64,000 nucleotides of DNA from Candidatus Magasanikbacteria bacterium RIFCSPHIGHO2_01_FULL_33_34 (GCA_001782825.1 MFPS01000007.1:84487-148486), one strand, 5' to 3'; positions 9,173 through 48,329 are shown, counted from the stretch's first letter. The notes: generated by a model from the sequence alone, not told the origin. Numbers and translations: made by a program.

Positions 9173-9178
9173 ATATTT

Positions 9179-11738: not shown

Positions 11739-13196
11739 ATGAGCAAAGAGGGTGTTTTAGGAAAATCAATCAAAAGTGGGAAATGGTTATCTATTGGTTA
11801 TGTAATTCAAAGAACTTTAGGCATAGCCTCTTTTGTTGTTTTAGCTAGAATTTTAAGTCCAGAAGATTTTGGTGTAATGGCAGTAGTACTCATTGTGCCA
11901 AATTTTTTACAAGCCACCACTGAAATGGGTTTTTATCCAGCCATTATCCAATCTGAAGGGTCATTTAAAAAATATCTTGATCCTATCTGGACCATAGGTA
12001 TTATAAAATCCATCATTATCTTAATTGTTACTTTTTTTGGCGCGCCAATAATTGCAGATTTTTTAAACGCCGAGCATATAGAAAGTGCAATTAAATTGGG
12101 TGGTATATTTTCTTTTATTCTACGTCTTGGCAATCCAGCAGAAGTAACCACTTACAGAAATGTAGAATTTAAAAATGTATTTGTACGCGATACAGTCCGT
12201 GAAATTACATACATAACCATCGCTATAATTTCTGCAATACTCCTCAAATCATACTGGGCTCTAATCATTGCTACATTTGCTTCTAAAATTGCTCAAGTTA
12301 CTATAACATATATTCAATATTCATACAGACCACATTTTTCTTTTCACTGGAAAAAATTAAAAGAACTATTTGGTTATAGTAAATGGATTATAGGACAAGG
12401 TTGGTTAAATCAAATTTACAGCGCAACTGAAAGTATGACCATCACTAGATTGTCTGGTATATATAATATGGGTCTATATACAAAAGGAAAAAACCTAGCT
12501 AGTGTTGGTCCTGGTTTTATAAGTTCAATCATGAATCAAGTAAGTTTCTCTGCATATTCAAGATTAAAAGATTCTCTAGATAAAATAAATGATGGCTTCA
12601 AAAAAAGCTTAGATATTCTTTTCTTTTTTGTAGTTCCAGTTGGTTTTTTATTATTAACAGCTGGTGGCAAATTAATACTTATATTTTTAGGAGAAAAATG
12701 GCTACCTATGAACGGCACAATGCAAATAATGTTTATCTATTTTTCACTTAATCTAATTTTGGAAATACTATATGCACTTTTCAACGGCGTCGGACACCCA
12801 CAAAAAAAAGTTAAGATGGATATGATCAAAATTGTTTTAACTCTCAGTATGATTATTCCTTTTACAAAAATGTATGGCATTATTGGAGCAGCCTTGGCAC
12901 TATTGTTTGGCATGCTACCAGTCCTTTTAATCGCATTAATACATTTGAAAAAAATTACAAAAATAAGTTACAAAGAAATATTTAAAACCACTTATTCCCC
13001 AGCAACCCTATCAATATTTATGATGATGCCAATTATAATCTTCAAAGATAGTTTCTTATCATGGAACACTTCAATGCTATTATTATACGGAGCTTTTTCT
13101 GGAATTTTTTACTTGGGCGGTACCTATATAATGGGTAAAAAATTAAATACAGGCCCATACAAAACCATAGAAACTATTTTAAAACATGTATTATAA
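11739..13196 (+). CDS. Polysaccharide biosynthesis / oligosaccharide flippase (Wzx-like, MOP superfamily)
   Basis: 485 aa, about 12-14 predicted TM helices, N-terminal polysaccharide-biosynthesis-protein-like region. Confidence 0.6.
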   Translation: MSKEGVLGKSIKSGKWLSIGYVIQRTLGIASFVVLARILSPEDFGVMAVVLIVPNFLQATTEMGFYPAIIQSEGSFKKYLDPIWTIGIIKSIIILIVTFFGAPIIADFLNAEHIESAIKLGGIFSFILRLGNPAEVTTYRNVEFKNVFVRDTVREITYITIAIISAILLKSYWALIIATFASKIAQVTITYIQYSYRPHFSFHWKKLKELFGYSKWIIGQGWLNQIYSATESMTITRLSGIYNMGLYTKGKNLASVGPGFISSIMNQVSFSAYSRLKDSLDKINDGFKKSLDILFFFVVPVGFLLLTAGGKLILIFLGEKWLPMNGTMQIMFIYFSLNLILEILYALFNGVGHPQKKVKMDMIKIVLTLSMIIPFTKMYGIIGAALALLFGMLPVLLIALIHLKKITKISYKEIFKTTYSPATLSIFMMMPIIIFKDSFLSWNTSMLLLYGAFSGIFYLGGTYIMGKKLNTGPYKTIETILKHVL

Positions 13197-15969: not shown

Positions 15970-16692
15970 ATGGACTTATCTATTGTGGTGCCAATTTACA
16001 ATGAAGAAAAGCTACTCAGAAATTCTATTGAACAGATATATAATTTTTTAAAAGAAGCAAAAAAAATTGATTCATACGAAGTCATATGTATTGATGATGG
16101 TAGCACAGACACGACTAGACAAATACTTGAAACATTAAAAATCCAATATCCTGACATTATTATAAACCAAAAAAGACCAAACCACGGAAAGGGATACTCT
16201 GTCAAAGAAGGTATACAAATGTCCACAAAAAACTATGTGGTATTTTTTGACGCCGACCTCTCTACACCTCTATATGAAATAAACAATTTTATAGACGAAA
16301 TGAACAATACTCAACCTGATATAATAATTGGCAGTAGAAATAATGAAAAATCAAAAACAAAACGATCATTCAAACGTACTCTCATAAGTAAAACATTTGC
16401 TATACTAAAAAAATTAATTTGTAATATTTACTACCAAGATACACAATGTGGTTTCAAATTTTTTAAAACTAATACAGCCAAAGATATTTTTGAAAAAATA
16501 ACAATAAATGGTTTTACTTTTGATGTAGAGATGTTGGTAATAGCAAAAAATAAAGACTATTCCATAAAAGAAAAACCAATTGAATGGGTTGAAGCAAAAA
16601 CTACTTCCCTGAATATTTTCAGACAAGTTTTCAAAATGTTAAATGATTTATTTTATATAAGAAAAAATATCAAAAAAGGACTATACAACTAG
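15970..16692 (+). CDS. GT2 polyprenol-phosphate glycosyltransferase (Dpm1/ArnC/GtrB-like)
   Basis: SIVVPIYNEEKLL...ICIDDGSTDTT...FFDADLSTP...QCGFKFF. 240 aa. Confidence 0.7.
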   Translation: MDLSIVVPIYNEEKLLRNSIEQIYNFLKEAKKIDSYEVICIDDGSTDTTRQILETLKIQYPDIIINQKRPNHGKGYSVKEGIQMSTKNYVVFFDADLSTPLYEINNFIDEMNNTQPDIIIGSRNNEKSKTKRSFKRTLISKTFAILKKLICNIYYQDTQCGFKFFKTNTAKDIFEKITINGFTFDVEMLVIAKNKDYSIKEKPIEWVEAKTTSLNIFRQVFKMLNDLFYIRKNIKKGLYN

Positions 16693-18149
16693 TCCTTAAT
16701 TTTATATAAAATGTGCTTCCCTTCTCTCTTTACTTCTTCAAAATTTTCTTCTAACTCTGACAAATAATCTTTTAATAACTCATTATCTTCTGGATATATT
16801 GCTACGATATAATCTGGATAAGGAAATTCTTTAAACAAATTTTTACCCACACGTAAATGACTATTTATCCTATAATTGTGATAAGTATTTTTATGTTGCA
16901 CCAAAAACCCAATTGCCGCCTGATCCACCATAAACAAAACCTTGTCTTCTTCTATATTTTTATTTAAATATTCAGCAAATATTCTTGGCGATTTGTTATG
17001 GTACAAAATATCCCCCCTACTATTTATCAAATGAAAAGTCTGTACAGATAGCAAAAAAATAAAAGCAAATCCAAGTATTTTTTTAATATAAACTTTATGA
17101 TCAAAATATTTTTTACAATACAAAAATGCAGGCCCAGCAAAAATCAAAGCTATAATATGAGCTGGAAAAAAATATCTATACCAACCTGGACTTTTCAAAA
17201 AGTATACAACATCTACCACAAGAAAAATCCAAAAAATCATCTCTTCTCTACTTAATTTTCTACTATTACTTTTAATCTTAAAAAAACAAAAGAAAACAAC
17301 CAATAAAAGAAAATGTATAGGTGTACTTTCTGTAAAAAACTTTAAAAAATTAGCCTTAAGAGTTCCTTCATTGGTAATTTGAGAATTACTATAATAATCA
17401 AAAGTTTCTTTTAAATATCCTATTGTAAGCTCTCCTGGAAATAATGTTTTAAACCAAAGAAACAAAGGCAAAATCATGCCCACAAACAAAAGCAACCACC
17501 TTTTCCACTCCACTCTTTTACTTTTATACGCAAAATATAACTCTTCTACTGCCAGCGCAAAAAGTATTGGCAAAAACAATGGTTTGGTTGCTACGCATAT
17601 ACCAATCAAAAACCCAGCCAAAAGCGTCTTCCAGATTTTCTCACTATTTAAAAAGAAAAAAGAAGCTAACAAAAAAGTTATTCCTGGCAATTCCCCATTT
17701 GCACCCGTAAGACCATTTCCATATAATGGCAAAAATGATACCAACAAGGCAATACTTATATAAGCCGACTTTTCTGAATACCTATCCTTTACAAAGAAAA
17801 AAGTCAAAAATAAAAAAACAAAAATAAACATTATCATCACAATCTTTACTTGCCACAACCCAATACCAAACAATAAAAAAGATAAAGCAATTGGCGCTAA
17901 AACTGGATAATTATTTGTTATCAACCACGGCAATTGAGACACATAATCTTCTGGTGAAAGCCTAAAGCTATAAACCCCCGTCTCTACCCATGTTTTAACT
18001 ATTCCTATATTTATACCCTCATCCAACCAAGGAGACGGGCTATCTGGAAAACCATAAAAAATAGAATATAAAAATATACCCAATATTATCGGTATCAATA
18101 TTTTCTTATAATTTTTATCCAAAAAAGAAACGGCTTTGTTTATATTCAT
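16689..18149 (-). CDS. GT-C fold membrane glycosyltransferase (ArnT/PMT-like, GT39/GT83-type)
   Basis: 486 aa, about 11-13 TM helices, periplasmic-loop acidic residues near the N-terminus, C-terminal soluble domain. Confidence 0.55.
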   Translation of the reverse strand: MNINKAVSFLDKNYKKILIPIILGIFLYSIFYGFPDSPSPWLDEGINIGIVKTWVETGVYSFRLSPEDYVSQLPWLITNNYPVLAPIALSFLLFGIGLWQVKIVMIMFIFVFLFLTFFFVKDRYSEKSAYISIALLVSFLPLYGNGLTGANGELPGITFLLASFFFLNSEKIWKTLLAGFLIGICVATKPLFLPILFALAVEELYFAYKSKRVEWKRWLLLFVGMILPLFLWFKTLFPGELTIGYLKETFDYYSNSQITNEGTLKANFLKFFTESTPIHFLLLVVFFCFFKIKSNSRKLSREEMIFWIFLVVDVVYFLKSPGWYRYFFPAHIIALIFAGPAFLYCKKYFDHKVYIKKILGFAFIFLLSVQTFHLINSRGDILYHNKSPRIFAEYLNKNIEEDKVLFMVDQAAIGFLVQHKNTYHNYRINSHLRVGKNLFKEFPYPDYIVAIYPEDNELLKDYLSELEENFEEVKREGKHILYKIKD

Positions 18150-18229
18150 AATTATGATAATATATCTCTATCCTAAGGATTTAACCATAAAATACAATAT
18201 TTTTCAAATTTTATGGACATAAATATATT

Positions 18230-18940
18230 ATGAAATTAGCCATAATTATTCCAACTCTAAACGAACGAGGCTCTTTGCCACTATTATTTAACGAGATGGA
18301 TCAAATATATCAAAACATAAAAGATAAAGGATTTGAACCAGAAATTATTATAATAGACGATAATTCAAATGATGGTACACAACAATTTGTAGAAGAATAT
18401 TCCCATAATTCACCCTACAAAACAAAACTGATAGAGAGAAAAGAACGAGGTCTAGCAACCGCAGTCATTCGTGGCTTTACAGAAACAGAGGCTGATGTAC
18501 TTTGTGTTATGGATGCAGATTTGTCTCACCCACCTGCGCTTATCCCTAAATTAATCGAAAATTCAAAAAGTTTTGACATAGTTCTGCCTTGCAGAAATAT
18601 GATTGGTGGTGGCGCAGAAGAATGGCCAATACATAGAAAACTCACATCAATGTTCGCCACATCACTTGTGAAATTACTCGGTATAACAGTGCGAGATCCA
18701 ATGAGTGGCTTTTTCTTGATTCACAAAAAAGTTATAGAAGATGTAAAATTAAATCCCATTGGCTATAAAATACTTTTGGAAATCCTAGTAAAAGGAAAAT
18801 ATAAAAATTATATAGAAGTACCCTATATATTTCGCAATCGTGCAGTTGGTAATAGCAAAATGAGTGGAAAAATAATCGGTCAATACCTCAAACATCTCTG
18901 GGAACTCAAAAAATGGCAAAAACAAAAAACAAGGACTTAG
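18230..18940 (+). CDS. GT2 polyprenol-phosphate glycosyltransferase (Dpm1-like)
   Basis: LAIIIPTLNERGSL...IIIIDDNSNDGT...MDADLSHPP. 236 aa. Confidence 0.7.
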   Translation: MKLAIIIPTLNERGSLPLLFNEMDQIYQNIKDKGFEPEIIIIDDNSNDGTQQFVEEYSHNSPYKTKLIERKERGLATAVIRGFTETEADVLCVMDADLSHPPALIPKLIENSKSFDIVLPCRNMIGGGAEEWPIHRKLTSMFATSLVKLLGITVRDPMSGFFLIHKKVIEDVKLNPIGYKILLEILVKGKYKNYIEVPYIFRNRAVGNSKMSGKIIGQYLKHLWELKKWQKQKTRT

Positions 18941-18952
18941 TCCTTGTTTTTT
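18924..18952. terminator. Palindromic hairpin spanning the overlapping stop codons of convergent genes (bidirectional terminator candidate)
   Basis: AAAAAACAAGGACT-T-AGTCCTTGTTTTTT. The TAG at 18938-18940 is the stop of the plus-strand gene; the same AAGGACT/AGTCCTT stem recurs at 16676-16697. Confidence 0.45.
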
Positions 18953-19662
18953 ATGTATATTATCATTCCTTGAGCATACATAGACGGCCATATTTTATTC
19001 AAAATTGGCAATCCTTCGTATAAAATAAATTTAGACAGTCTAAACCCAATGGCCCGCACCCAAAATTTCATATCCTTTACTGTCCAAAAACGCACATGCT
19101 CTCCCGGATGAGCTATCCACTGCAATGGAAATCTACCAAACAAAAGTCTCAATCTATGCGCATAATAACCTGTGTTTGGAGTAGAAAAAATAAATCCTTT
19201 TTTTGCTTTGTCTTTTAGTCTATATACAAATTGCTCTGGATTTGGCATATGTTCTATTATTTCAAACCCAGTAATATAATCAACTTCTGGTAAATTTTTT
19301 ATATTTTCCAAATCATTTATATCCATTTTTATAGCTTCCAAACCCAAACTTCTTACCCTCTCAATTGATTTTTCATCAATATCAACCCCTATTCCTCTTA
19401 TATCCGCCTTATCTTTAAAATATTTCAATATGGCTCCGTCTCCACAACCAATGTCAAGTACAGTACTGCCCTTTTCTAGAAAACCCAGTACCAAATCAGC
19501 TCTTTGTTTTTGCCAATTAGACAAAACTGGTTCATCTGTTTGTCTACGTTTTTCCCAATAAGCCCCATGATCTTGAGATAAATTTGGACCAAACTTACAC
19601 TCTGGATAAAAAGTTATTTTCTTAAAATCCTCTTTGATTTTCCAAACCAACTGCTTTAACAT
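18937..19662 (-). CDS. Class I SAM-dependent methyltransferase
   Basis: VLDIGCGDGAILKYF (motif I); 241 aa. Confidence 0.6.
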   Translation of the reverse strand: MLKQLVWKIKEDFKKITFYPECKFGPNLSQDHGAYWEKRRQTDEPVLSNWQKQRADLVLGFLEKGSTVLDIGCGDGAILKYFKDKADIRGIGVDIDEKSIERVRSLGLEAIKMDINDLENIKNLPEVDYITGFEIIEHMPNPEQFVYRLKDKAKKGFIFSTPNTGYYAHRLRLLFGRFPLQWIAHPGEHVRFWTVKDMKFWVRAIGFRLSKFILYEGLPILNKIWPSMYAQGMIIYIKNKD

Positions 19663-19664
19663 AA

Positions 19665-20789
19665 TTATTTTAATATAAAATTTACTATCTCCTTAGCCCT
19701 ACTTTCCCAATCATATTTTTTAACATCCAAATTAGCTTGCTTTACCAAACTATCAGACAAATCTTCTTGTGTCAAAACTTTTTTTATGCCATTAGCTAAC
19801 TCCACAACATTACCCGCTTCTACCAATACAGCATTATCTTCAGACAATACTTCCCTTATAGATGGCAAATCTGATGCCACAATTGGCGTGCCAGAAGCCA
19901 TATATTCAAACATTTTCATTGGAGATGTATAATGCGAAGATATTTTTTCTTCTCCACAATTTGGCAAAATTAAAACATCAACTGCATTCATCCAGTCTGG
20001 CATCTCATCGTGACTCTGCCAACCAATATACTTAAGATTTTTAAAATTATATTTTTCCTTAAATCTTTTCAAATCCACATCAGTACCACCTACAATATAA
20101 AAATCAAGCTCTGGTAACTCTTTGGCAGTCTCCGCAAATATATGCGCACCCTTCCATTTATAAAGATGTCCGGTATACAAAGCAATCTTTTTATCTTTTG
20201 GTATATGCAATTTTTTTCTTGAACTATCTTTTGTTCTATTGATATTAAATTTTTCAATGTCAACCGCATCACGAGCAATAATTATTTTATTTGCATCTAC
20301 ACCAAACTTGACCAAATCATCTTTTATATTTTGGCTAATAACAATTATACCTTTTACTCTTGACCATGTCTTTATATATTTTGATGATGGTTGCTGAGGT
20401 AGACTATGCACTTCATAATAAACGCTATTATAGACCTTTGATAATTCCAATGCTATATATAAATCACGCGTATAAAAAATATCAATATTCTCTTTTTTAA
20501 TATAAGCTCTGACTGCATAATAAAAAGTCAAAGTTTCAATCCAAAAAAATATCTTTTTAAAAAATGGTAAATTAACCAAATCCAAACACCATACTTTAAT
20601 AATAGAAAAATTTTCTTTTATACTATAAAATTTAAAAGGATTTTCTTTATGATTATTTTTCCTTGTCGGAACAACTAATACAACTTTCAAATCAGATGAA
20701 ACCAAAGATTCACATGTCTTCACAATCTGGATTCCATGTGCTTTTTCAGTTGGTAAACGAATATTTGCAATATAAGCTAACGATTTCAT
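19665..20789 (-). CDS. GT4 (GT-B) glycosyltransferase
   Basis: 374 aa; C-terminal EYMASGTPIVASDLPSIREV nucleotide-binding region. Confidence 0.6.
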   Translation of the reverse strand: MKSLAYIANIRLPTEKAHGIQIVKTCESLVSSDLKVVLVVPTRKNNHKENPFKFYSIKENFSIIKVWCLDLVNLPFFKKIFFWIETLTFYYAVRAYIKKENIDIFYTRDLYIALELSKVYNSVYYEVHSLPQQPSSKYIKTWSRVKGIIVISQNIKDDLVKFGVDANKIIIARDAVDIEKFNINRTKDSSRKKLHIPKDKKIALYTGHLYKWKGAHIFAETAKELPELDFYIVGGTDVDLKRFKEKYNFKNLKYIGWQSHDEMPDWMNAVDVLILPNCGEEKISSHYTSPMKMFEYMASGTPIVASDLPSIREVLSEDNAVLVEAGNVVELANGIKKVLTQEDLSDSLVKQANLDVKKYDWESRAKEIVNFILK

Positions 20790-20820
20790 ATTTATATGTA
20801 ATAAGAATTGAGGACATTAT

Positions 20821-20932
20821 TTATAATTAAGCATTAGTTTGTTTATTTATTTTTACGGATTTGATACCCATAACAGGCATCACCCTCGGAGCCAAGGCGA
20901 GAATGAGTAAAAACAAATAAACAAACTAATGC
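20821..20932. promoter_or_regulatory. Hairpin-embedded intergenic element B, same conserved core as element A
   Basis: Stem GCATTAGTTTGTTTATTTATTTTTAC (20821-20846) pairs with GTAAAAACAAATAAACAAACTAATGC (20907-20932). Loop reads ...GGATTTGATACCCATAACAGGCATCACCCTCGGAGCCAAGGCGAGAATGAG. It lies 32 nt upstream of the GT4 start at 20789. Confidence 0.45.
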
Positions 20933-20977
20933 GATCGTAGATGAAATATAAACAATGCTATTATATCTTACAACTTA

Positions 20978-22333
20978 TTATATAAACAAACCCAATTTTT
21001 CCTTTAATTTGTCCATGCTTAATAGTAAATCAATTATAGCATTTAAACTTATTATTCCAAAAGCCATAATAAAAGCTTTTTCTTTGATATTTTTCTTATT
21101 TTGCCACAACAATACCGCTCCATATCCAGCTAATAATGAAAGCAATGGATATATTTGAAATCTATATCTAGTTTCAACCACAGTAATAAATAATATCAGT
21201 GGAGTTAAAAAAATAAACGCAAAAATATAATTTAACGTATTTGATCTTTGCGACCACAATTTAATAGAGGCATACAAAGACAAGACAAATAACAAAAGTG
21301 ACCAAACAGCCGAAGACATCAAAAATAAAAATTGACTAATACCTGAATCATAAAACCAAAAACCCATCGGTCGTATAACACTAAAATATCTATTTATCCT
21401 AAGTGCGGTCAGACGAATAAAATCCAATGGATAATTACGAACAAAAATTTTAAATTCATCGATAGACTTATCAGATACCAAATATGCGCCATATTCTACT
21501 ATAAAATCCTCTACCTCCTCTGGCTTGTCTTGTTCACCAGTTGCACCAACATGATTGCCTATCCAAAAATTATAACCACCAGCTGCGCCAAAAGGCATTA
21601 TTTTTTCATAAGCCATATAATTACGGACTGTCCACGGTGTAAATATAGCACCGATAGCCACAGACATTATAATTATTTGTTTGTATTTTTTCTTGAATAC
21701 AAAATACAAAAATATAACAGGCAACACAAAAAGTACCGGTGGTCTCGCCAAAACAGCCAAGCCACTAATTATCCCTAAAGATATAGCATTAATCCAAGAT
21801 TTTGATCCAGAAATTTTCTCTTTATCAATAAAGTTTAAAAAATACCAAATAAGCCATGTCCAAAAAAATATATATAATGTCTCTGTCATAAGCATAGCAG
21901 AAATCTCTACTAAATCTGGAGAAAAACCAAATATAATAGTAGAGCCCAAAGCCATCAATTCAACTTTTTCGTATTTTTTAAATAAAATTTTAGCAGATAA
22001 ATAAACAAAATAAGCGGACACAGTATGTAACAAAGCCTGAATTATCCAAACTACTTCATAATTGTGCCCAAATACCAAATAAATAAATGCCAAAAAATAT
22101 TGGTATAATGGACCGACTCTGGTTATGGCTTTATCAAACTTAACATCTGCGCCAGCATCTTCTACAAAACCATTACCAGAAATTATATTTTGAGCAATAT
22201 GATCATAGGCTCTAGCGTCAACCACTGGATGAATTCTAAAAACAAAAGAATAGGCAATACACAAAAAAAGAGACCCTAACAAAATATATAATAAAGGTTT
22301 CTTTTTGAGATTATTTTTAACCTCCTCAAACAT
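20978..22333 (-). CDS. GT-C fold membrane glycosyltransferase (ArnT/PMT-like)
   Basis: 451 aa polytopic membrane protein immediately downstream of a Dpm1-like GT2 (9-nt gap). Confidence 0.5.
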   Translation of the reverse strand: MFEEVKNNLKKKPLLYILLGSLFLCIAYSFVFRIHPVVDARAYDHIAQNIISGNGFVEDAGADVKFDKAITRVGPLYQYFLAFIYLVFGHNYEVVWIIQALLHTVSAYFVYLSAKILFKKYEKVELMALGSTIIFGFSPDLVEISAMLMTETLYIFFWTWLIWYFLNFIDKEKISGSKSWINAISLGIISGLAVLARPPVLFVLPVIFLYFVFKKKYKQIIIMSVAIGAIFTPWTVRNYMAYEKIMPFGAAGGYNFWIGNHVGATGEQDKPEEVEDFIVEYGAYLVSDKSIDEFKIFVRNYPLDFIRLTALRINRYFSVIRPMGFWFYDSGISQFLFLMSSAVWSLLLFVLSLYASIKLWSQRSNTLNYIFAFIFLTPLILFITVVETRYRFQIYPLLSLLAGYGAVLLWQNKKNIKEKAFIMAFGIISLNAIIDLLLSMDKLKEKLGLFI

Positions 22334-22341
22334 AGATGAAT

Positions 22342-23046
22342 TTAATTAGTAAACCTGTATTTGATTATACAATAAATTGCACGGACTCCATCTTTCCAAT
22401 TTATCTTTTTACCTTCTTCATAAGTTCTATGATCATACGAAATAGGTACTTCAAAAATTTTAATACCTTTTACTTTAGCTAATTTTGCGGTAAACTCTGG
22501 CTCAAACCCAAATCTATTTTCACGCAACTCAAAATTATTTAATATCTCTTTTTTAAAAACCTTATAACAAGTTTCCATATCTGTGAGAATCAAATTTGTA
22601 AACATATTAGACAATAATGTCAAAAACTTGTTACCCATAGTATGCCAAAATTTTAATACTTTATGAGAACCTGGTTGTAAAAATCTAGAACCATAGACCA
22701 CGTCCATACCATCTTCCAATATTGGTTTTAACAAAACTTTATATTCATCTGGATTATACTCCAAATCAGCATCTTGAATAATTATTATCTCACCTTTTGC
22801 CTCCTTGAAACCACGACGAATGGCAGCTCCTTTGCCCATATTTTGTTCTTGACTATAAACACTAAGGCTATACTTTAACGCCAATTCTTCTAAAACTTTT
22901 TTTGAATTATCTCTTGAACAATCATTGACACATACTATTTCTTTTTCAAGTCCAAGGACATCCGCCTCTTTTACTCTTTTCAATATTTTTTCAACTGTTT
23001 TTTCCTCATTATAAACTGGGATAACAATAGATACTTTACTAAACAT
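22342..23046 (-). CDS. GT2 polyprenol-phosphate glycosyltransferase (Dpm1-like)
   Basis: [18 protein letters not shown]...[11 protein letters not shown]...QDADLEYNP. 234 aa. Confidence 0.7.
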
Positions 23047-23058
23047 ATATTTATTTAA

Positions 23059-23700
23059 TTATTTCTTTTCAACTATTAAGGCCATTTGCTTAGCACCAGG
23101 CCTTATCGGTGAATTTAGATAAGCTCTAATTACTAACCTAGGTGTAGGTATAGAACTACTCTTAAATGAATAAGGAGTAATTTTTGGTAAGACTTTTATC
23201 AAATCAAAATTATTCTCTTTAAGTAAAGTAGAAAGACCCTCATGGGTAAATATTGTCCTATGAGTATAATCATCAAAATACTCACGCCAACAATACCTAA
23301 AGTTTGGTTGTAAAATACACAATCTTCCACCCTTTTTCAACACTCGGTTAATTTGTAAAATTATTTTTTCAACATCTTCAATTATAAAATGTTCAAAAAA
23401 ATTACTTGCTAAAAACATATCTACTGAATTATCTTCAAAAGAAGATAATTCAGTCGCATCTTGGACTAAAGCTTCTGTGCCATTTTTAGCATAATCTCTA
23501 ACAATTGGAGAAATATCTATTGCTACCTTTTTATTTGCTTTTACATTATTTATCCAACAACAATAACCAGCGCCTAATTCTACAACTTTATCTAATTGTT
23601 TTGGATAATAAGCAGAAAAAAAACGATTCAACTCTTCCCAAACAATATCTCTTCTGCCATCAGCTGTTAATCTTTCTTCAAAATATTTTTCTGTGTACAT
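23059..23700 (-). CDS. Class I SAM-dependent methyltransferase
   Basis: VVELGAGYCCW (motif I), LKKGGRLCIL (motif II-like). 213 aa; overlaps the upstream GT-C gene by 34 nt. Confidence 0.5.
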   Translation of the reverse strand: MYTEKYFEERLTADGRRDIVWEELNRFFSAYYPKQLDKVVELGAGYCCWINNVKANKKVAIDISPIVRDYAKNGTEALVQDATELSSFEDNSVDMFLASNFFEHFIIEDVEKIILQINRVLKKGGRLCILQPNFRYCWREYFDDYTHRTIFTHEGLSTLLKENNFDLIKVLPKITPYSFKSSSIPTPRLVIRAYLNSPIRPGAKQMALIVEKK

Positions 23701-25040
23701 ACTTTTTTATTTCGTATATATTTACAATAAATCTCCCAAGCTCCAAATACACCCAACATAACAACAAACGGAAAAAATGGCATATTATATCTACCAGAAT
23801 TTGAACCATTAGCTATGTTCCCTGTCAACAATACATTCAAAGCCAAAAAGCTCAACAAAAAACTAGTCCAAAGTCTATATTTTTTAATCATTAAGGTAGA
23901 TAAGGCTAGTAGTACTAAACCATACCAAAAAATGAACAAAAATGCAACCACAGGCTTAAGTACATACTGAGGAAAATCTGGCTTTTTAGGAAGAAGCACA
24001 TGATCAGCCAAATACCCATAATCAGCCTTAAAAAAACCTTTAAACGCACCCGTTAGATGAAACCTAATAAAATCTATAGGATGTCTAGTTATCAAATCTC
24101 GCAAATATTCCTTATAAAATGGATGATTATTATATTCATAATGATAATATGTATATTTATTTGGTCTTCTCATATTATCTGATCCAGGAAACTGATAATA
24201 ATCAGGTGGTGGTTCAAGCCAATAATGTGGAATATTATGCAATTTAGCAAATGGTTCTGAAATATATATATGAATTGCCATCCACCCATTGCTAGACAAT
24301 GAAAAATGTCCAAACTGTTTATAATTTCTTGCCATCCAAGGAAAAAGAACTAAGCAGAAAAAAAATACTACTAATACTACAGGTTTTATAAAAGGCTGTT
24401 TTTTTATTTTTTTTGTCCTTAAAAAATTTTTTACACTATCTTTGTGCATATAAAGAAGTGTTATTATTACAATCGGAAATAAATACAAAAAAATTGGCCT
24501 TACTTGAGCAGTAATCCCAATCATCAAACCAGCTAATCCATATTTTTTCTTTATAAAAAACAAAACAAAAAATGCAAAAAATACACCAGCAAAATGGTCA
24601 GACATCAAAAGATTTGACCAATAAATCATTGTCGGATCAAAAGAAAAAATTACAGACGATATTATTCCTACGTATTTGTTGTTGAACAATAATAATGCTA
24701 TTTTATAAATCAAAACTGAAACAATACCAGCTAAAATATTTTGCACCATTACTATAGTAATATATGGTGTACTAAATAATCTAAATGGCAATAAAAACAA
24801 TGGATATCCTGGAGTCCTCATAGCATCTGGTACTAACTCTGGATGCACCAATGCTTCACTAAAAATATTATTATACAAAATATTATTTGCCAACTTTACA
24901 TACACAGTCGTATCTGAATAAGAAACAAACACATCTTCACCAAACATTCTCTGTATTACTATTGCATAAATTGCACGAATAGAAAAAGCTAATAAAAAAA
25001 GTATAATTTCTATATTATATTTTTTTATTAATTTAATCAT
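23667..25040 (-). CDS. GT-C fold membrane glycosyltransferase
   Basis: 457 aa polytopic membrane protein; start codon 3 nt from the stop of the preceding Dpm1-like GT2. Confidence 0.5.
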   Translation of the reverse strand: MIKLIKKYNIEIILFLLAFSIRAIYAIVIQRMFGEDVFVSYSDTTVYVKLANNILYNNIFSEALVHPELVPDAMRTPGYPLFLLPFRLFSTPYITIVMVQNILAGIVSVLIYKIALLLFNNKYVGIISSVIFSFDPTMIYWSNLLMSDHFAGVFFAFFVLFFIKKKYGLAGLMIGITAQVRPIFLYLFPIVIITLLYMHKDSVKNFLRTKKIKKQPFIKPVVLVVFFFCLVLFPWMARNYKQFGHFSLSSNGWMAIHIYISEPFAKLHNIPHYWLEPPPDYYQFPGSDNMRRPNKYTYYHYEYNNHPFYKEYLRDLITRHPIDFIRFHLTGAFKGFFKADYGYLADHVLLPKKPDFPQYVLKPVVAFLFIFWYGLVLLALSTLMIKKYRLWTSFLLSFLALNVLLTGNIANGSNSGRYNMPFFPFVVMLGVFGAWEIYCKYIRNKKVCTQKNILKKD

Positions 25041-25042
25041 AA

Positions 25043-25765
25043 TTATTTCTCTTTATGTTTTTTTGAAAATATCCGTTCTTTGAGTATAAAAAAAATCATT
25101 ATAATACCAAGTTTGACTGCTTTAGAAGTTTTTCCTGTTATTTTTGATTCCCCTTTTCTTGGACAATAATGCACTGGAACCTCAACACAAGGTATATTAT
25201 ATTGCAAAACTCTTATCATAAATTCTGGAGAAAACCACGAACCAGGTACTGTAAATCTATGTTTTATTTTATCATAAGCAAGTTTATGAATGACTTTGAA
25301 GGTGCAACCGACATCAGTAAGAGATGGTCCATTAAACAAATACTCTAAAAATTTTGCAACTCCCCAATTGCCCAAGCGAATACCAAATTTCATATTAGCG
25401 CCAGACCATATCAAAGCTCTTGATGTTCTTGTACCAAAAACAACTTGATAATCAACCGAATAAATAAGCAACTTTTCTATATCTTTTGCCAAAAATGTAC
25501 CATCTGGTTCAACAGTAACAATCAAATCCCCATTAGCTTCCTGCATACCTCTTTGCAAAGCAGAACCATAACCTTGTCTTGTTTCTAGCACATACCTAGC
25601 ATTTGTTTTCAAAATCTCTTCTTTACTCCTATCTGTAGAATTATTATCTACTGCAATAACTTCATCTACTGACGGTTGTGATAAAAAAGATTTTATTGCA
25701 TTATGTATATTTTCCTCTTCATTATATACAGGCAATACTACTGAAACACGCATTCCATTATACAT
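25043..25765 (-). CDS. GT2 polyprenol-phosphate glycosyltransferase (Dpm1-like)
   Basis: VSVVLPVYNEEENI...AVDNNSTDRS...VTVEPDG. 240 aa. Confidence 0.7.
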   Translation of the reverse strand: MYNGMRVSVVLPVYNEEENIHNAIKSFLSQPSVDEVIAVDNNSTDRSKEEILKTNARYVLETRQGYGSALQRGMQEANGDLIVTVEPDGTFLAKDIEKLLIYSVDYQVVFGTRTSRALIWSGANMKFGIRLGNWGVAKFLEYLFNGPSLTDVGCTFKVIHKLAYDKIKHRFTVPGSWFSPEFMIRVLQYNIPCVEVPVHYCPRKGESKITGKTSKAVKLGIIMIFFILKERIFSKKHKEK

Positions 25766-28605: not shown

Positions 28606-29593
28606 ATCTTTTTTTCTTTTTTAATCTATAAAAAAAGTAAGCAGAAACACCTACAAAAAATAAAGTTGATAAAAATAATAAAGCTGTTATTTTTTTTAAA
28701 TAAACAATCATAATCATTCTCAACCTTTCATAACTAAACCTAGGAATATTTTCTCTATAAGAAGGTAATCTTTCTTCTATTTTTTTAAAATTTAACCCTG
28801 CTATATCCTCGTGTACTGCAATAGGATTCACAACTATATCATCCTCAGACACAACTACATGCAAAAAATGTTGGGGAAATTTATATTCTCTTTCTGAGAA
28901 ACCTACCCCATAATAATCAATACCATTTTCTTGATAAGCAAAATATGGCTGTCTAGAACCAACATCACCAACAAAAACTCCCAAAGTATTACTGTTTATA
29001 AATGGTACTACTTCAAAATTCCAATTATTTGATTCACTTATTGTCTGTCCCCTATTATTGCACAAATCAACCTCATCTTCATAAAATAAACAATGATGAA
29101 CAAACACTATATTTTGCTTATCTTTTTTAAAATTTTCTTTTAACCATTCAAGTTGAGTACCCAATATATCATAAGTAGCAATTGGCGCAACCACATCAGA
29201 ACTGTTTAAAAATAAAAAATTTATATTTTTTAATTCAAAAGATTGATATAAAGGTCCAATTTTTTCTATAAAATTTTGTCTATCATCAGACCTATCCTCT
29301 ATATCGTGATTACCTGGTACAAAATAAACCGGCATACTAAATTTGTCGGTAATTTCAAGTATTACCTCCCATTCTGTTTGATGATTATTTGGTAAAGTGT
29401 CACCATTAAAAACAACGAAATCCGGCTTAAGCTGATTAACTTTTTCTACACTTTTTTCCAATGCTTCATAATCTGGATATATATGTCCAAATACTACAAA
29501 ACTAACATCTTCTTTTTTATCAATCTGCGCAAAAACAAAATCTGGAACTAATAAAAATGCCAGTAAAAAAATTATTGTATATACTTTATTCAT
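28592..29593 (-). CDS. Calcineurin-like metallophosphoesterase with signal peptide and C-terminal TM anchor
   Basis: VVFGHIYPD...FNGDT...GNHD...VHHCLF metallophosphatase motifs; overlaps the CotH-like gene by 14 nt. Confidence 0.6.
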   Translation of the reverse strand: MNKVYTIIFLLAFLLVPDFVFAQIDKKEDVSFVVFGHIYPDYEALEKSVEKVNQLKPDFVVFNGDTLPNNHQTEWEVILEITDKFSMPVYFVPGNHDIEDRSDDRQNFIEKIGPLYQSFELKNINFLFLNSSDVVAPIATYDILGTQLEWLKENFKKDKQNIVFVHHCLFYEDEVDLCNNRGQTISESNNWNFEVVPFINSNTLGVFVGDVGSRQPYFAYQENGIDYYGVGFSEREYKFPQHFLHVVVSEDDIVVNPIAVHEDIAGLNFKKIEERLPSYRENIPRFSYERLRMIMIVYLKKITALLFLSTLFFVGVSAYFFYRLKKKKRYDNK

Positions 29594-42680: not shown

Positions 42681-44390
42681 TTAAAATTTATAGACTTTAA
42701 AGACATCTTCATTACGATGATTTTTAATAAATTCAGGTTCAATACCCTTCTCTAATAAATATTTCTCAAAAGCAGTAGTCTCTACTTTTAATTTGTATGG
42801 CGCATAGAGCGGACCGACATTAAAATCTTTTTGTTCCACGCCGGTAAAATAAAGAAAATGTTCCACTCCTTGTTCTCTATAATATTCATCCCATTTGTCC
42901 CCAGTAATATTGAAAAACGCCTCATCAGACATTACTGGCCAACTATTATAAATAAGCCTTCTTTGAAATGTCCATAAACGAGACAAAAAATTAAAATCAT
43001 AATCATAAATAATAACCAATGCATATTTTGTAAAATTTTTTCTTGTCTCATTTTCTATCTGTTTATTTTGCAAATCTACCATAAATTGATATATAGGCTT
43101 GCCAAAGGCATCGGAAGTTTTGCCATACAAATAATCATCTAGGTAATCATTTACCTCAACAAAACCAAAATTTTGTTCTTCAACATTTATTTGCGCATAA
43201 TCAATATTCATTTTCCCTAAAGAAGGTGAAATTAAAAAACTATTGACAGTAAACAATAACTCAGACACAAAAATAAAACCTAAAAATAAATAAATAAATT
43301 TTTTATATTTTCCCCATTCAAATAATTTTGCAAAGATATATGCAATGAGTAAAATAAAATATGGTATTATCATCACTACAAAACGTAAAGTTGAACCAAT
43401 AATCAAAAACCAAAAACTTTCTAAAATAATTGTAGCCAATAAGAAAAGGACAAGCTTTGATCTATTTCTTATATACAAATAAATTGCAGTCAAAATAGAA
43501 AAAGAAATTATAAAATTAAAAATTATACTATTAGCTTGACGCAAAATTTCAAAGAAAAATATAAACCTATCACCTACTCTGCCAACCATTGCTCTTCCTT
43601 GCCTAAACTGCCACCGCTCAACATGCTGATTTAATAAGGCCGAAACTTGAAAATCAAAATGCCCAAAATTTTTATAAAGAAACAAATTATATAACCAAAA
43701 TGGAAAACTAAAAATTATAGTGCTTAATACACCATAATAAAAAAATTTATTTTTAATAAAACTATATTTATAAATTACAGCATAAATGAGTAAAATAGGT
43801 ACAATTATCAATACTGTAAGTTTAGTAATAATCCCCAGGCCAAGAGTGATTCCCCACAAAATCCACAAATACAATTTGTTCTCATCTAATGCTTTTATCC
43901 AAAGAAATAGTATAAGTAATGAAAAAAAGATAACTGTACCATCTTGAATACCCAGTCTAGACACCCATACATGATAAGATTGCATTGAGAACAATAACCC
44001 AGCGATATAACCAGCTCTCTTGTTTATAAGACGAGTAGCAATAAGATATATCAAAAAAACCGAAGCAATACCAAATAAAACAGATGGCGAACGCAAACCA
44101 AGCATATTCTCGCCCAATATACCTATACTTATGTGCTGTATTAAGAAAAATAATATAGGGTGATCATGAAAAGATAAATGCATCCACCATGGTACTTTAT
44201 CTACCCATTGCCATGGGGTTGTTTGTACAAGAGACAAATCATAATCAATCATAGAAATTGCCCTAAAACCTGTCAAAACTTCATCAGTATATGGATCATG
44301 AGAATCTACATTGAAAAACCTCAAAAAACTGGCTAAAAATATAATAGCAATAATAAGTAAAAAACCTTTACTTTTAAATTTTTTTAACAT
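42681..44390 (-). CDS. GT-C fold membrane glycosyltransferase (ArnT/PMT-like) with a large C-terminal soluble domain
   Basis: 569 aa; about 12 N-terminal TM helices, then a hydrophilic C-terminal ~180 aa. Confidence 0.5.
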   Translation of the reverse strand: MLKKFKSKGFLLIIAIIFLASFLRFFNVDSHDPYTDEVLTGFRAISMIDYDLSLVQTTPWQWVDKVPWWMHLSFHDHPILFFLIQHISIGILGENMLGLRSPSVLFGIASVFLIYLIATRLINKRAGYIAGLLFSMQSYHVWVSRLGIQDGTVIFFSLLILFLWIKALDENKLYLWILWGITLGLGIITKLTVLIIVPILLIYAVIYKYSFIKNKFFYYGVLSTIIFSFPFWLYNLFLYKNFGHFDFQVSALLNQHVERWQFRQGRAMVGRVGDRFIFFFEILRQANSIIFNFIISFSILTAIYLYIRNRSKLVLFLLATIILESFWFLIIGSTLRFVVMIIPYFILLIAYIFAKLFEWGKYKKFIYLFLGFIFVSELLFTVNSFLISPSLGKMNIDYAQINVEEQNFGFVEVNDYLDDYLYGKTSDAFGKPIYQFMVDLQNKQIENETRKNFTKYALVIIYDYDFNFLSRLWTFQRRLIYNSWPVMSDEAFFNITGDKWDEYYREQGVEHFLYFTGVEQKDFNVGPLYAPYKLKVETTAFEKYLLEKGIEPEFIKNHRNEDVFKVYKF

Positions 44391-44476: not shown

Positions 44477-45826
44477 TTATGATGACAATTCTTCACCATC
44501 TGGATATTCTTCTGAATCTTCTACTGTTACAATTCTATCCCATCTATATCCTAGATTTTTAAAAGCTTGTTCATCAGTTATATGTCTCTTTAAACCACCT
44601 TCTAGACGATATACTCTTGAATCATCTAAATACTTAATAAGAGTAAAATTAGGATGACGATCTGTATAATTTATCTCAGTTCCAACTGTATATTTGTCCA
44701 ATAATGATTCATCAATATCTTCTATCCAATTCCATTTATATCCCAATGTATTAAACACTGCTTCATCAGTTATCCAATATTTTTCTGTACCAAGTAATAA
44801 ATAAACTTTTGGATCACTAACTATTTTGACTAATGCGCCATATTTTGGATCATATTTTGATCCCCATGGCATAAAGCCTAAATTATCCTCATCCAAAGCA
44901 TCCAAACTTTCTCTTGAAACAACATTTACATCATTCCAACTATCAAAATAAGTAAAGAATACTCGTGAATTATTGAAAGATCTTTTTTTACAATCTTTAG
45001 TCACATAATATACAGCTGAAGATTGTGAACGCTTGAAAGCCTTACCAACTTGTAATGAACAACCCAGAGGGCCCTGTTCAGGTTCTAAATCTGACACAGC
45101 CATAGAATCTGCTGACGTCAATTCAACAAACTTAAACTGTGGTTTAAGACTACTGGTTGACAAGCCATAATAAGTAACCCGTAAATCAGTCCAACCATTG
45201 CCATCAGTATCTATATCTTTAGTTTCATTCTTGTTTAGAGACATTCTGAGAGGTTTTGATGAGATTGTTAATAATGCAATTGCATCTGACGCGCTTGTGA
45301 CCACAACTGTATGAGAAGCTGATGTTAATGATAAAGCAAAAGGATCATTTACATTCAAGGTTACCTCTACCGTGGTTGTGTCCGGAGTTTGAGTAGTACT
45401 ACTTCCTCCGCCACCACCACTACCAGGACTCACTCCACTACCACTACCGCCACCACTACCGCCAGTACATGAATTGGCTGCACCAGGAGTAATAGTCAGA
45501 GTTATACTAGATGAACACTGCATTGCAATTGTAGACAAACTATCTGTACAGGTTGATGCTAGCACTTCACAACCAGCGCTAGGTGTTAATTTACTTCTAT
45601 TAGTAGATCTAATTTCAACAATAGAGCTATCCTGCATTACAAATGCTATATCATTAGTATTTACAGTAAAAGATTCTACACGTGTCGCATTTGTCAAAGT
45701 ATAAGTTAAACCATTACCAGGAAGTAAAATATCTGCACTACCAGAAACCGTCACATCGTTAAATGCGGCTAATACGACAGATGGTACTAACAACAGCGCA
45801 AATATAATAAATAATATTTTCTTCAT
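44477..45826 (-). CDS. Secreted protein with signal peptide, Gly/Ser-rich linker and two C-terminal ~45-aa repeats (VYLLLGTEKYWITDEAVFNTLGYKW / VYRLEGGLKRHITDEQAFKNLGYRW)
   Basis: MKKILFIIFALLLVPSVVLA signal; GGSGGGSGSG linker; the same repeat type occurs three times at the N-terminus of the 1251-aa protein. Confidence 0.5.
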   Translation of the reverse strand: MKKILFIIFALLLVPSVVLAAFNDVTVSGSADILLPGNGLTYTLTNATRVESFTVNTNDIAFVMQDSSIVEIRSTNRSKLTPSAGCEVLASTCTDSLSTIAMQCSSSITLTITPGAANSCTGGSGGGSGSGVSPGSGGGGGSSTTQTPDTTTVEVTLNVNDPFALSLTSASHTVVVTSASDAIALLTISSKPLRMSLNKNETKDIDTDGNGWTDLRVTYYGLSTSSLKPQFKFVELTSADSMAVSDLEPEQGPLGCSLQVGKAFKRSQSSAVYYVTKDCKKRSFNNSRVFFTYFDSWNDVNVVSRESLDALDEDNLGFMPWGSKYDPKYGALVKIVSDPKVYLLLGTEKYWITDEAVFNTLGYKWNWIEDIDESLLDKYTVGTEINYTDRHPNFTLIKYLDDSRVYRLEGGLKRHITDEQAFKNLGYRWDRIVTVEDSEEYPDGEELSS

Positions 45827-47147: not shown

Positions 47148-48329
47148 ATGAAAAAAAATAAACTAAAACTTCTCTATCTTATCACCCAAGGACATTGGGG
47201 TGGAGCCCAAAAATATGTATTTGATTTAGCTACAGCGCTAACTGATGAATATGATATTACAGTAGCTGTTGGAGAACCAAATAATCTACCTGATTTACAA
47301 AAAAAATTATTAACCAACCAAAAAATCAAACTAGTTCAACTTAATTTTTTGCAAAGATCTATTTCTCCTATAAAAGACTTTTTGGCTCTACTTGAAATCA
47401 ATAATCTATATCGCAAAATCAAACCAGATATTGTCCACCTCAATAGTACCAAAGCCGGCATTCTCGGCTCATTTGCTTGTCAAATGTCAAATGTCAAATG
47501 TCAAATGTTGGTATATACTGTCCATGGCTGGGTTTTTAATGAACCTATGAACAAATTTAAAAAATACATATATAAAATAATGGAAGGTATAAGTTCACGA
47601 CGCAAAGATAAGATTATTGTATTATCTGACAATGAAAAAGAAACAGGTATAAATTTATTGAATATCAAAAAAGATAAATTTGTAATAATTCCAGTCGGTA
47701 TTGAATCTAACATAACTACCCTAAACAGAGTGAACGCTATAAACAAAATAAATAATACTTTCAAAAAAAATATACTAAAGCAAGATGATTATATAATTGG
47801 CACAATTGCAAACTTCTATCCTACAAAAAATTTAAGTAGTCTAATAGAAGCAATCAATATTGTTAAAAACAAATTAAACAATTTTCATAGTATAATCATT
47901 GGCGAAGGAGAAGAAAGAGTACATCTGGAATTTTTGATAAAAAAATATAATCTTGAAAACAATATACATTTAACCGGTTTTATTGATAATGCTCAAAACC
48001 TCCTAAAAGCATTCAATGTATTTGTGTTACCTTCCAAAAAAGAAGGTATACCTTATACCATAATAGAAGCCAGAATAAATAATATCCCAATCATAGCCAC
48101 CAATGTTGGTTCTATATACAAAATAATTGACAATATGAAAACTGGCATACTTCTGGAACCAGAAAATACTCAAAAACTTGCCGAGGCATTGATTTATGCC
48201 TATGAAAATCAAAAAGAAATGATCGCAATGGCAAATGCATCCAAAGAACAAAATCTACCAGAATATCTCAAAAACACCATGATTATAGAAACAGCCAATA
48301 TATACAAAAATTTTACCAATAAATCCTAG
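47148..48329 (+). CDS. GT4 (GT-B) glycosyltransferase containing an in-frame heptanucleotide tandem repeat
   Basis: 393 aa; C-terminal PSKKEGIPYTIIEARINNIPIIATNVGS; (GTCAAAT)x4 at 47479-47506 encodes CQMSNVKCQM. Confidence 0.65.
   Translation: MKKNKLKLLYLITQGHWGGAQKYVFDLATALTDEYDITVAVGEPNNLPDLQKKLLTNQKIKLVQLNFLQRSISPIKDFLALLEINNLYRKIKPDIVHLNSTKAGILGSFACQMSNVKCQMLVYTVHGWVFNEPMNKFKKYIYKIMEGISSRRKDKIIVLSDNEKETGINLLNIKKDKFVIIPVGIESNITTLNRVNAINKINNTFKKNILKQDDYIIGTIANFYPTKNLSSLIEAINIVKNKLNNFHSIIIGEGEERVHLEFLIKKYNLENNIHLTGFIDNAQNLLKAFNVFVLPSKKEGIPYTIIEARINNIPIIATNVGSIYKIIDNMKTGILLEPENTQKLAEALIYAYENQKEMIAMANASKEQNLPEYLKNTMIIETANIYKNFTNKS
47479..47506 (+). repeat. (GTCAAAT)x4 heptanucleotide tandem repeat inside a GT4 coding sequence (candidate slipped-strand phase-variation tract)
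   Basis: Four perfect 7-bp units plus a partial GT. The unit length is not a multiple of 3, so a +/-1 unit change shifts the frame. Confidence 0.7.

Follow-up and report, generated by a model that had tools for sequence, protein, structure and literature searches.

Actinobacterial Ppm1/Pmt systems couple a Ppm1-like synthase, which consists of the catalytic domain only, to membrane glycosyltransferases with the GT-C fold, of the PMT family or of others, and in mycobacteria many GT-C enzymes build lipomannan, lipoarabinomannan and arabinogalactan outside the membrane from one or two donors. In Haloferax volcanii, N-glycan finishing involves the dolichyl-phosphate (Dol-P) mannose synthase AglD, the outside transferase AglS and AglP, a cytoplasmic S-adenosylmethionine (SAM) methyltransferase that acts on lipid-linked sugar; the AglP substrate is another lipid-linked oligosaccharide, not the Dol-P-mannose donor. 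The Gtr three-component systems combine the flippase GtrA, the undecaprenyl-phosphate (Und-P) glucose synthase GtrB and a serotype-specific GT-C, and include a pentofuranose variant (PMC11127046). Here we analysed a stretch of 64,000 nucleotides from Candidatus Magasanikbacteria bacterium RIFCSPHIGHO2_01_FULL_33_34 (GCA_001782825.1, MFPS01000007.1:84487-148486), hereafter the window, which carries neighbouring genes for small glycosyltransferase family 2 (GT2) proteins, GT-C enzymes, methyltransferases (MTs) and a sugar epimerase between positions 15970 and 26802. Genes are named by their first coordinate.

We propose that the GT2/GT-C pairs make lipid-linked sugars inside the cell and attach them outside, and that a cassette containing an MT delivers a methyl-sugar; we give this reading a probability of about 0.7. 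At the cytoplasmic face, each GT2 would take one sugar off a nucleotide sugar and load it on polyprenyl phosphate, and the lipid-linked sugar would cross the membrane by means of some further protein. The partner GT-C, through an acidic residue of its first outer loop, would then add the sugar to an extracytoplasmic acceptor: perhaps the polysaccharide or glycoconjugate of the island itself, perhaps the nearby Ser/Thr-rich surface proteins, or both. In the cassette, the epimerase would supply a 4-epimerised nucleotide sugar, the MT would methylate on the donor side, and the GT-C would deliver a methylated, possibly galacto-configured sugar. The core of the original prediction, that a GT2 loads polyprenyl phosphate and a GT-C transfers the sugar outside, is well supported by homology, motifs, predicted fold and gene neighbourhood. 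Nearly every GT-C has its own GT2; therefore, several different donors are likely.

The Patescibacteria, or candidate phyla radiation (CPR), are uncultured bacteria with tiny genomes, probably surface-attached symbionts, whose envelope chemistry is almost unknown. More than 50 kb of one such genome is spent here on surface glycans, with at least five predicted lipid-phosphate sugar synthases and at least five GT-C-type enzymes, which implies that much of the surface glycan would be finished outside the membrane.

Small GT2 proteins and their GT-C partners

An open reading frame (ORF) check found every gene named in the original prediction, each at its predicted position. Five of them encode GT2 proteins of 234-248 aa (Pfam PF00535), as had been claimed, which resemble dolichyl-phosphate mannose synthase (DPMS) and related enzymes and lack a transmembrane (TM) segment:

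15970..16692, plus strand: GT2, DPMS/GtrB/PgfS-like, without a TM segment; DAD, Arg117, Arg131, Ser135
18230..18940, plus strand: GT2, by sequence a DPMS-type polyprenyl-phosphate mannose/hexose synthase, catalytic domain only
22342..23046, minus strand: GT2, DPMS/AglJ/ArnC-like, DAD, without a TM segment; PF00535 119 bits
25043..25765, minus strand: GT2, DPMS/ArnC/AglJ-like, without a TM segment, ExD (EPD) replacing DAD; PF00535 83 bits
3083..3829, minus strand: fifth GT2, PpgS/AglJ/DPMS-like, without a TM segment, outside 15970-25765

In a Protein Data Bank (PDB) search, the DPMS of Pyrococcus furiosus (PfDPMS) was the top solved relative of all five proteins, and ArnC and GtrB (sll0501) were also among the solved-structure matches for 15970, 18230, 22342 and 25043. 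For 22342, DPMS (5mlz; E 2.4e-26, residues 3-229) was followed by ArnC and then GtrB; for 25043, the order was DPMS, then ArnC. For 3083, ArnC and GtrB were not above threshold, and the next matches after DPMS were chondroitin synthase and glucosyl-3-phosphoglycerate synthase. Protein 18230 aligned with 5mlz over residues 1-232 at ~50% identity (E 4e-62) and terminates at residue 236, equivalent to PfDPMS residue 230, just ahead of the PfDPMS TM domain.

Definitions of the DPMS key residues, that is, the DAD motif and the lipid-phosphate ligands, were taken from PMC12992685. Type III DPMS carries the motif 89-DADxQHPP-96, coordinates the lipid phosphate through Arg117, Arg131, Ser135 and Lys178, and is defined by a C-terminal four-helix GtrA-like TM domain (Asn248, Asn277, Phe338, Arg341) (PMC12992685). 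In 18230, DAD and all four lipid-phosphate ligands (Lys178 within KIL) are conserved, with Ser in place of Gln93 (DADLSHPP versus DADxQHPP), and the C-terminal four-helix TM domain of type III DPMS is absent. Its sequence reads as that of a catalytic-domain-only DPMS relative, not a type III enzyme. Protein 15970 keeps DAD, Arg117, Arg131 and Ser135, and 22342 keeps DAD and Arg117; 25043 has EPD together with Arg117 and shows the conserved motifs of its family, ExD, GTRT and RxGxS. Assignment as a lipid-phosphate synthase appears strong for 18230 and good for 15970, while for the others it rests on ranking and context.

The best NCBIfam models for the GT2s were PgfS, PpgS, AglJ, ArnC and haloarchaeal dolichyl-P hexose transferase, all with scores far below the equivalog cutoffs. 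PgfS came first for 15970 and 18230 (70.4 and 67.3 bits; cutoff 500), 22342 scored 104 bits for AglJ and 78.6 bits for ArnC (the best ArnC score; cutoff 529), AglJ and dolichyl-P hexose transferase headed the matches of 25043, and 3083 reached 100 bits for PpgS. A grouping of the GT2s with processive synthases, which would have refuted the original prediction, was not observed: they rank with DPMS, ArnC and GtrB, the QxxRW motif is absent from all GT2s examined, and none of them has a hydrophobic or TM segment. Processive synthesis was rejected on the latter two grounds. The C-termini of the GT2s look amphipathic, which may help to retain these anchorless proteins at the membrane.

The polytopic proteins are the following:

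16689..18149, minus strand: GT-C, weakly PMT_2/GT87-like, with a GT2 gene on each side; PMT_2 25.9 bits versus a cutoff of 26.1
20978..22333, minus strand: GT-C, PMT_2/ArnT-like; PMT_2 51 bits
23667..25040, minus strand: membrane glycosyltransferase of predicted GT-C fold, 457 aa, from a small family outside Pfam
42681..44390, minus strand: PMT/PMT_2 family GT-C; PMT_2 81.4 bits (cutoff 26.1), PMT PF02366 37.8 bits (cutoff 22.7)

That these are GT-C enzymes was borne out by PMT_2 for 20978 and 42681 and marginally for 16689, which has at least nine hydrophobic segments. The exact product of 23667 is in the databases as a hypothetical protein of Candidatus Magasanikbacteria, encoded on more than 20 assembled contigs, including one of 1.17 Mb. 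It matches nothing in Pfam or NCBIfam, and a PDB sequence search with its family profile gave only a weak match to STT3; structure prediction gives it the GT-C fold, not that of a transporter. This profile aligned with 20978 at 99.6% hhalign probability over almost the full length, D39 being aligned to D43, and with the N-terminal half of 16689 at 85.6%. Structure prediction and hhalign thus point to GT-C enzymes where the original prediction had allowed that transporters might be found, and transporter identity was rejected on the structure prediction. An acidic residue lies ~10 residues past TM1 in all four proteins: D43 in 23667, where it is nearly invariant within the family, D39 in 20978, D42-E43 in 16689 and D35-E36 in 42681, which carries a TDE motif after TM1. 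The GT-C of three-component systems is marked by its fold and by an acidic residue within the first outer loop, and both are found here. The NCBIfam ArnT model scored 26.8 bits for 42681 (cutoff 567), and 16689, 20978 and 23667 are without large outer domains.

On the minus strand, epimerase gene 25789 is followed after 23 nt by GT2 25043, after 2 nt by GT-C 23667 and, with a 34-nt overlap, by MT 23059; the run continues after 12 nt with GT2 22342 and after 8 nt with GT-C 20978. A gap of 188 nt separates it from GT4 19665 and, 2 nt further on, MT 18937. GT2 15970 (plus), which is coupled to an upstream Capsule_synth-like gene (2-nt gap), and GT-C 16689 (minus) are convergent, their 3' ends overlapping by 4 nt; GT2 18230 (plus) points away from GT-C 16689, with 80 nt between them, and converges on MT 18937. 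The tight coupling of GT2 into GT-C that had been described is therefore found at 25043/23667 and 22342/20978, and not at the convergent pair 15970/16689 or the divergent 18230/16689. The 34-nt overlap is real, and the start of MT 23059 is backed by full-length alignment to orthologues. The idea of GT2, GT-C and MT as a repeated unit had to be given up: there are three GT2/GT-C pairs, and MT 23059 is the one MT that lies within such a module, while MT 18937 and MT 30665 (4 nt before GT4 29590) are coupled to GT4 genes. Nor did tandem amplification hold, as the GT2s share 23-32% identity with one another and the GT-Cs no more than 28% in partial alignments, and lineages differ in how the partners are combined. 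This deep divergence of the paralogues rules out recent amplification, and recent tandem duplication of the modules was rejected.

The pairing was then followed across Patescibacteria in a scan of one genome per species, which gave 12 loci with a 23667 orthologue; two more loci came from exact-protein look-ups. The ORFs of each locus were searched with profiles of the window proteins, and best hits were assigned. The 12 loci come from metagenome-assembled genomes of Giovannoni-, Niyogi-, Harrison-, Saccharibacteria and other Patescibacteria. A small GT2 is immediately adjacent to the 23667 orthologue in 10 of the 12 species-representative genomes, and at least one lies within 6 kb in all 12. 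The recurring architecture is two to three GT-C and three to five small GT2 genes per ~10 kb, with Parcubacteria among the carriers; the synteny comparison that had been proposed thus shows that the clustering of several GT2/GT-C pairs recurs and is non-random.

Two types of pair can be followed. A 15970-like GT2 stands beside a 16689-like GT-C (30-42% identical) in eight loci, co-directional and with a stop/start overlap in three (L014, L016, L019) and convergent in four (L012, L017, L018, L020). As this pairing is kept in eight loci, the convergent pair of the window is a real functional pair. A 22342-like GT2 (44-55% identical) lies directly upstream of a 23667-like GT-C in six Patescibacteria loci, whereas in L009 the 23667-like GT-C is paired with a 25043-like GT2 (76% identical) instead; in the window, 23667 lies between GT2s of both types. 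The partners have thus been swapped, and on these sequence comparisons the pairs appear to be old, diverged modules exchanged between lineages.

L009 (CAZTEU010000001.1) is also the closest relative of the GT2-GT-C-MT triad in the genome collection (76%, 44% and 48% identity); it is labelled 'uncultured Gammaproteobacteria', which could reflect a mislabelled bin or lateral transfer. Another relative (P0006) combines a 23667-type GT-C with a GT4 domain in one protein. The literature searched, with incomplete coverage, contained no relevant paper on GT-C-based glycosylation in CPR, Patescibacteria or Saccharibacteria.

The epimerase-MT-GT2-GT-C cassette

Two further genes complete the cassette:

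23059..23700, minus strand: class I SAM methyltransferase of a ~213-aa family, motif QPNFRY..YFDDYTH; Methyltransf_11 53.5 bits
25789..26802, minus strand: NAD-dependent sugar 4-epimerase-like short-chain dehydrogenase/reductase (SDR), first gene of the four-gene cassette; Pfam Epimerase, GDP_Man_Dehyd

Pfam identified 18937, 23059 and 30665 as class I methyltransferases, in agreement with the original prediction, and the closest solved relatives of 25789 are UDP-hexose 4-epimerases (4zrm, E 1e-43). The family of MT 23059 comprises 1893 matches at E<=1e-8 and 88 clusters (50% identity, E<=1e-30) among 1.84 billion representatives; the window MT carries its invariant residues, QPN..YFDD.TH.

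Three long contigs from outside the CPR, one of them from Verrucomicrobiota, share the order epimerase-MT-GT2-large membrane protein, with identities of 36-38% to 25789, 44-45% to 23059 and 48-53% to 25043, and two of the three carry the cassette outside any glycan island. By structure prediction, the corresponding membrane protein of other phyla is a GT-C too. A metagenome scan found at least 541 relatives of the MT; tblastn-based counts covered the 41 loci among the best 80 in which the MT is flanked by 900 nt or more on each side. A 25043-like GT2 lies within 2.5 kb of the MT in 39 of the 41, accompanied by an epimerase in 21, and the commonest order is epimerase-MT-GT2. Proteins like DUF2079 gene 48326 of the window come after this trio in some metagenome loci. 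In the window itself, MT 23059 and GT2 25043 are 1.3 kb apart with the GT-C between them, and MT, GT2, GT-C and epimerase are all present.

Fusions link the same partners. P0031 joins a PMT_2 domain to a downstream MT domain whose closest match is 23059, and its neighbour in locus L008 is an MT::GT2 fusion. The overlap of the GT-C and MT genes is also kept in L009 and L010. Two other fusions were seen in this family: P0391 joins a polytopic Pfam-less protein to an MT of the 23059 family, and P0284 joins such an MT to a B12-binding radical SAM domain.

The cassette occurs in CPR, Verrucomicrobiota, Gemmatimonadota, Acidobacteriota and sphingomonads, its members being annotated as 'hypothetical protein' or generic methyltransferase. 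In Polymorphobacter megasporae the order is GT2-MT-GT39/PMT_2-GtrA, with GtrA on the opposite strand, converging on the GT-C; on Sphingobium plasmids, GtrA-GT2-MT precedes genes for two ~500-aa proteins. The sphingomonad GT2 has an N-terminal extension, hydrophobic in appearance, which the CPR form lacks. As the cassette is present in cultured strains of Polymorphobacter and Sphingobium, the proposed methyl-sugar route is directly testable.

Methylation itself cannot be placed outside the membrane, where the original prediction had put the assembly of the glycan: the MTs are soluble SAM enzymes without signal peptide or TM segment, and the fused MT follows a basic, presumably cytoplasmic GT-C tail. 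The C-terminal tail of 23667 is strongly basic, as is the linker of P0031, and by the positive-inside rule this end of the GT-C, together with any MT fused to it, would lie on the cytoplasmic side. Because the MT stays with one GT2 family although its GT-C companions differ in family, it would act on the donor side. Given this linkage and the fusions, the most likely substrate of the MT is a cytoplasmic one, either the lipid-linked sugar or its nucleotide precursor.

A different substrate for MT 23059, away from the lipid-linked donor, such as a nucleotide sugar, a cytoplasmic undecaprenyl-diphosphate (Und-PP)-linked glycan or an unrelated compound, strikes us as somewhat unlikely. It would suit a family for which no characterised relative was found and one member of which is fused to a B12/radical-SAM domain, in a region where both other MTs are coupled to GT4 enzymes. 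Against it stand the 95% linkage of the MT to a single family of GT2s alongside varying GT-C families, the fusions to GT2 as well as to GT-C, and the conserved overlap with the GT-C gene.

With the MT acting on the donor side, the cassette might represent an undescribed 'four-component' route to O-methylated surface sugars. Here the MT, perhaps bound to both the GT-C tail and the anchorless GT2, would modify the polyprenyl-phosphate sugar itself on the cytoplasmic side of the membrane, and in Patescibacteria without a GtrA-type flippase the GT-C or another protein would translocate the donor. We put this full scheme forward as speculation and rate it unlikely.

Several observations weigh against our proposal of GT2/GT-C pairs with lipid-linked donors and a methyl-sugar cassette. 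Among the DPMS lipid-phosphate ligands, 22342 and 25043 retain only Arg117; the membrane anchor that GtrB, ArnC and PfDPMS possess is missing from the GT2s; and the NCBIfam models score far short of their equivalog cutoffs throughout, so that they indicate no sugar specificity. No GtrA, SMR/EamA (small multidrug resistance) or MATE-type (multidrug and toxic compound extrusion) gene adjoins any pair in the window or in loci L001-L023, related Patescibacteria loci included. No solved or named relative of MT 23059 shows its substrate, the PDB giving only generic methyltransferases, and the literature searched, again with incomplete coverage, yields no precedent for methylating a polyprenyl-phosphate monosaccharide.

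The first three of these points would be expected if the small GT2s simply worked in the cytoplasm as transferases elongating an Und-PP-linked repeat unit and stood beside GT-C genes only as members of the same island. We consider this very unlikely: lipid-phosphate sugar synthases are the top matches of all five GT2s, the tight pairing with GT-C genes, start/stop overlaps included, is kept across at least 12 genomes, and the cassette is found apart from glycan islands and together with GtrA.

Membrane crossing, acceptors and the surface-glycan island

The only flippase-like gene of the window is Wzx 11739. An unfiltered GtrA hidden Markov model search over the window and L001-L023 gave a best E of 0.6, and the window has no free-standing small polytopic ORF. 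The dedicated flippase of Gtr-like three-component systems is thus missing from the window, whereas GtrA is present in the sphingomonad cassettes. The lack of both a dedicated flippase gene and GT2 anchors makes the locus relevant to a question of long standing, the passage of lipid-phosphate sugars through membranes. In L008, a gene for a 117-aa EamA/TMEM234-like protein (3606-3959, minus strand) without a window counterpart lies between the GT-C::MT and MT::GT2 fusions; its product is a candidate SMR-type flippase. ArnE/ArnF are flippases of this type.

As to the acceptor, Ser/Thr-rich surface proteins do exist near the modules, as predicted, with 21-25% Ser+Thr against a window median of 10%:

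44477..45826, minus strand: secreted protein, signal peptide, Gly/Ser/Thr-rich linker, 21.6% Ser+Thr; candidate acceptor
45863-46453: third Ser/Thr-rich secreted protein; candidate acceptor
52760..56515, minus strand: secreted/surface protein of 1251 aa, (GT)n linker, Thr/Ser/Gly-rich repeats; candidate acceptor

It is possible that the modules O-glycosylate these three island-encoded proteins, in the manner of Ppm1/Pmt and Pgf. Besides their composition, this would agree with the DPMS-type synthase 18230 and with the PMT-family GT-C 42681, whose gene lies directly downstream of that for secreted protein 44477. The Pgf operon likewise joins a GT-A synthase, an epimerase, two GT-Cs and target adhesins (PMC12041528). 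On the other side, no result obtained here links the Ser/Thr-rich proteins to particular modules, PgfS scores reach ~70 bits against a cutoff of 500, three of the GT-Cs have no large outer domains and stand amid Wzx, Wzy_C and eight GT4 genes, and where the cassette is isolated in other phyla, such proteins are not nearby.

It is quite possible, alternatively, that side-chain or terminal sugars are added to the polysaccharide or lipid-linked glycan of a Wzx/Wzy-type island, as in Gtr O-antigen glucosylation or the decoration of Gram-positive wall polysaccharide and teichoic acid. The pairs are embedded among Wzx, Wzy_C-TPR, GT4 enzymes and nucleotide-sugar pathways, and three-component systems classically modify exported polymers (PMC11127046). 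However, no initiating phosphoglycosyltransferase was recognised in the window, and support is as indirect as for a protein acceptor. We rate the two kinds of acceptor about equal, and different modules may have different acceptors.

Pfam scans of essentially every ORF show that ~1-52 kb of the window forms a single surface-glycan island, and they confirmed the DUF2079 and Wzy_C+TPR genes of the original prediction. The GC content of the window is ~30%, and nearly all genes lie on the minus strand. The island holds a nonulosonic-acid block (NeuB, DegT, PseB-like), Wzx, eight GT4 genes, several SDR epimerases/dehydratases, AsnB, a CotH-like gene followed by a phosphoesterase, the PMT-family GT-C, DUF2079, Wzy_C-TPR and the three Ser/Thr/Gly-rich secreted proteins. 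Features outside the pairs and the cassette are:

11739..13196, plus strand: Wzx-type flippase (Polysacc_synt_3)
16676..16697: terminator-like hairpin, bidirectional (scores on both strands), at the convergent GT2 15970/GT-C 16689 junction
18924..18952: terminator-like hairpin at the convergent GT2 18230/MT 18937 junction
18937..19662, minus strand: class I SAM methyltransferase (Methyltransf_23/MetW-like), coupled to GT4 19665
19665..20789, minus strand: GT4 (GT-B) cytoplasmic glycosyltransferase; Glycos_transf_1, Glyco_transf_4
48326..49765, minus strand: DUF2079 polytopic protein; DUF2079 227 bits

GT4 19665 is part of the cytoplasmic assembly line and no member of a GT2/GT-C pair. Both hairpins are built on the identical stem AAGGACT/AGTCCTT.

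At the left end of the island, an ORF truncated by the window start (1-2144, minus strand) encodes a DegT aminotransferase fused to an SDR epimerase/dehydratase domain, and beside it 3833-10240 holds DUF386, NeuB, a 409-aa Pfam-less protein, a HisF/HisH-like pair, DegT and a PseB-like gene. Immediately upstream of the epimerase-GT2-GT-C-MT module, in the glycan operon, 26872-29593 carries the gene for a CotH kinase-like protein of 577 aa with a TM segment at its N-terminus, overlapping by 14 nt the gene for a calcineurin-like phosphoesterase, an arrangement kept on every contig of the organism. Amid the sugar genes, between AsnB and GDP-mannose dehydratase, lies a gene for a 23S rRNA intervening-sequence protein/bAvd-like four-helix bundle (33320-33673).

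Further along, 60001-62000 has a GC content of 0.598 against ~30% for the genome, with long overlapping ORFs on both strands. The sole match of ORF 59954-60943 (minus strand) in this stretch is a Cys-rich Dicty_CTDC repeat, and an HTH_17 (excisionase-like) gene, 59461-59799, lies immediately upstream; the stretch may be foreign DNA or an oddly composed gene. Rfam and tRNA scans of the whole window, the high-GC stretch included, gave no match, and a sigma-70 promoter scan of the window found 99 sites where 93 were expected, which is uninformative in AT-rich DNA.

Comparison with known systems

The locus resembles the Gtr three-component systems in having adjacent GT2 and GT-C genes in or beside a polysaccharide locus. 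In contrast to them, the window is without GtrA, SMR or MATE, its GT2s lack the two C-terminal TM helices of GtrB, and several pairs stand side by side, one of them with an epimerase and a dedicated methyltransferase; no methyltransferase was found as part of Gtr-type systems in the literature searched, the coverage being incomplete. Among single enzymes, 18230 matches the catalytic domain of the P. furiosus type III DPMS, ligands kept, without its TM domain. It is analogous to the TM-less catalytic subunit DPM1 of eukaryotes, with no DPM2/DPM3-like partner evident in the window, and its carrier is presumably a bacterial polyprenyl phosphate, the host being a bacterium.

The Streptococcus mutans Pgf system (PgfS, PgfE, PgfM1/PgfM2 and adhesins; PMC12041528) shares with the window an epimerase, a synthase, several GT-Cs and Ser/Thr-rich secreted proteins nearby. 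It differs in that PgfM is YfhO-type, whereas the window GT-Cs are PMT_2-type, in that Pgf has no methyltransferase, and in that the PgfS cutoff is missed here. The window proteins also miss both equivalog cutoffs (529 and 567 bits) of the ArnC/ArnT lipid A aminoarabinose system. Unlike the mycobacterial GT-C arrays, the GT-Cs of the window nearly each have their own GT2. The combination of AglD, AglS and AglP in Haloferax is like that of the cassette in function. In its general reading, then, this is a known kind of system and ordinary to a specialist; what appears to be new is the conserved epimerase-MT-GT2-GT-C cassette and the flippase-less, anchorless form that it takes in the CPR.

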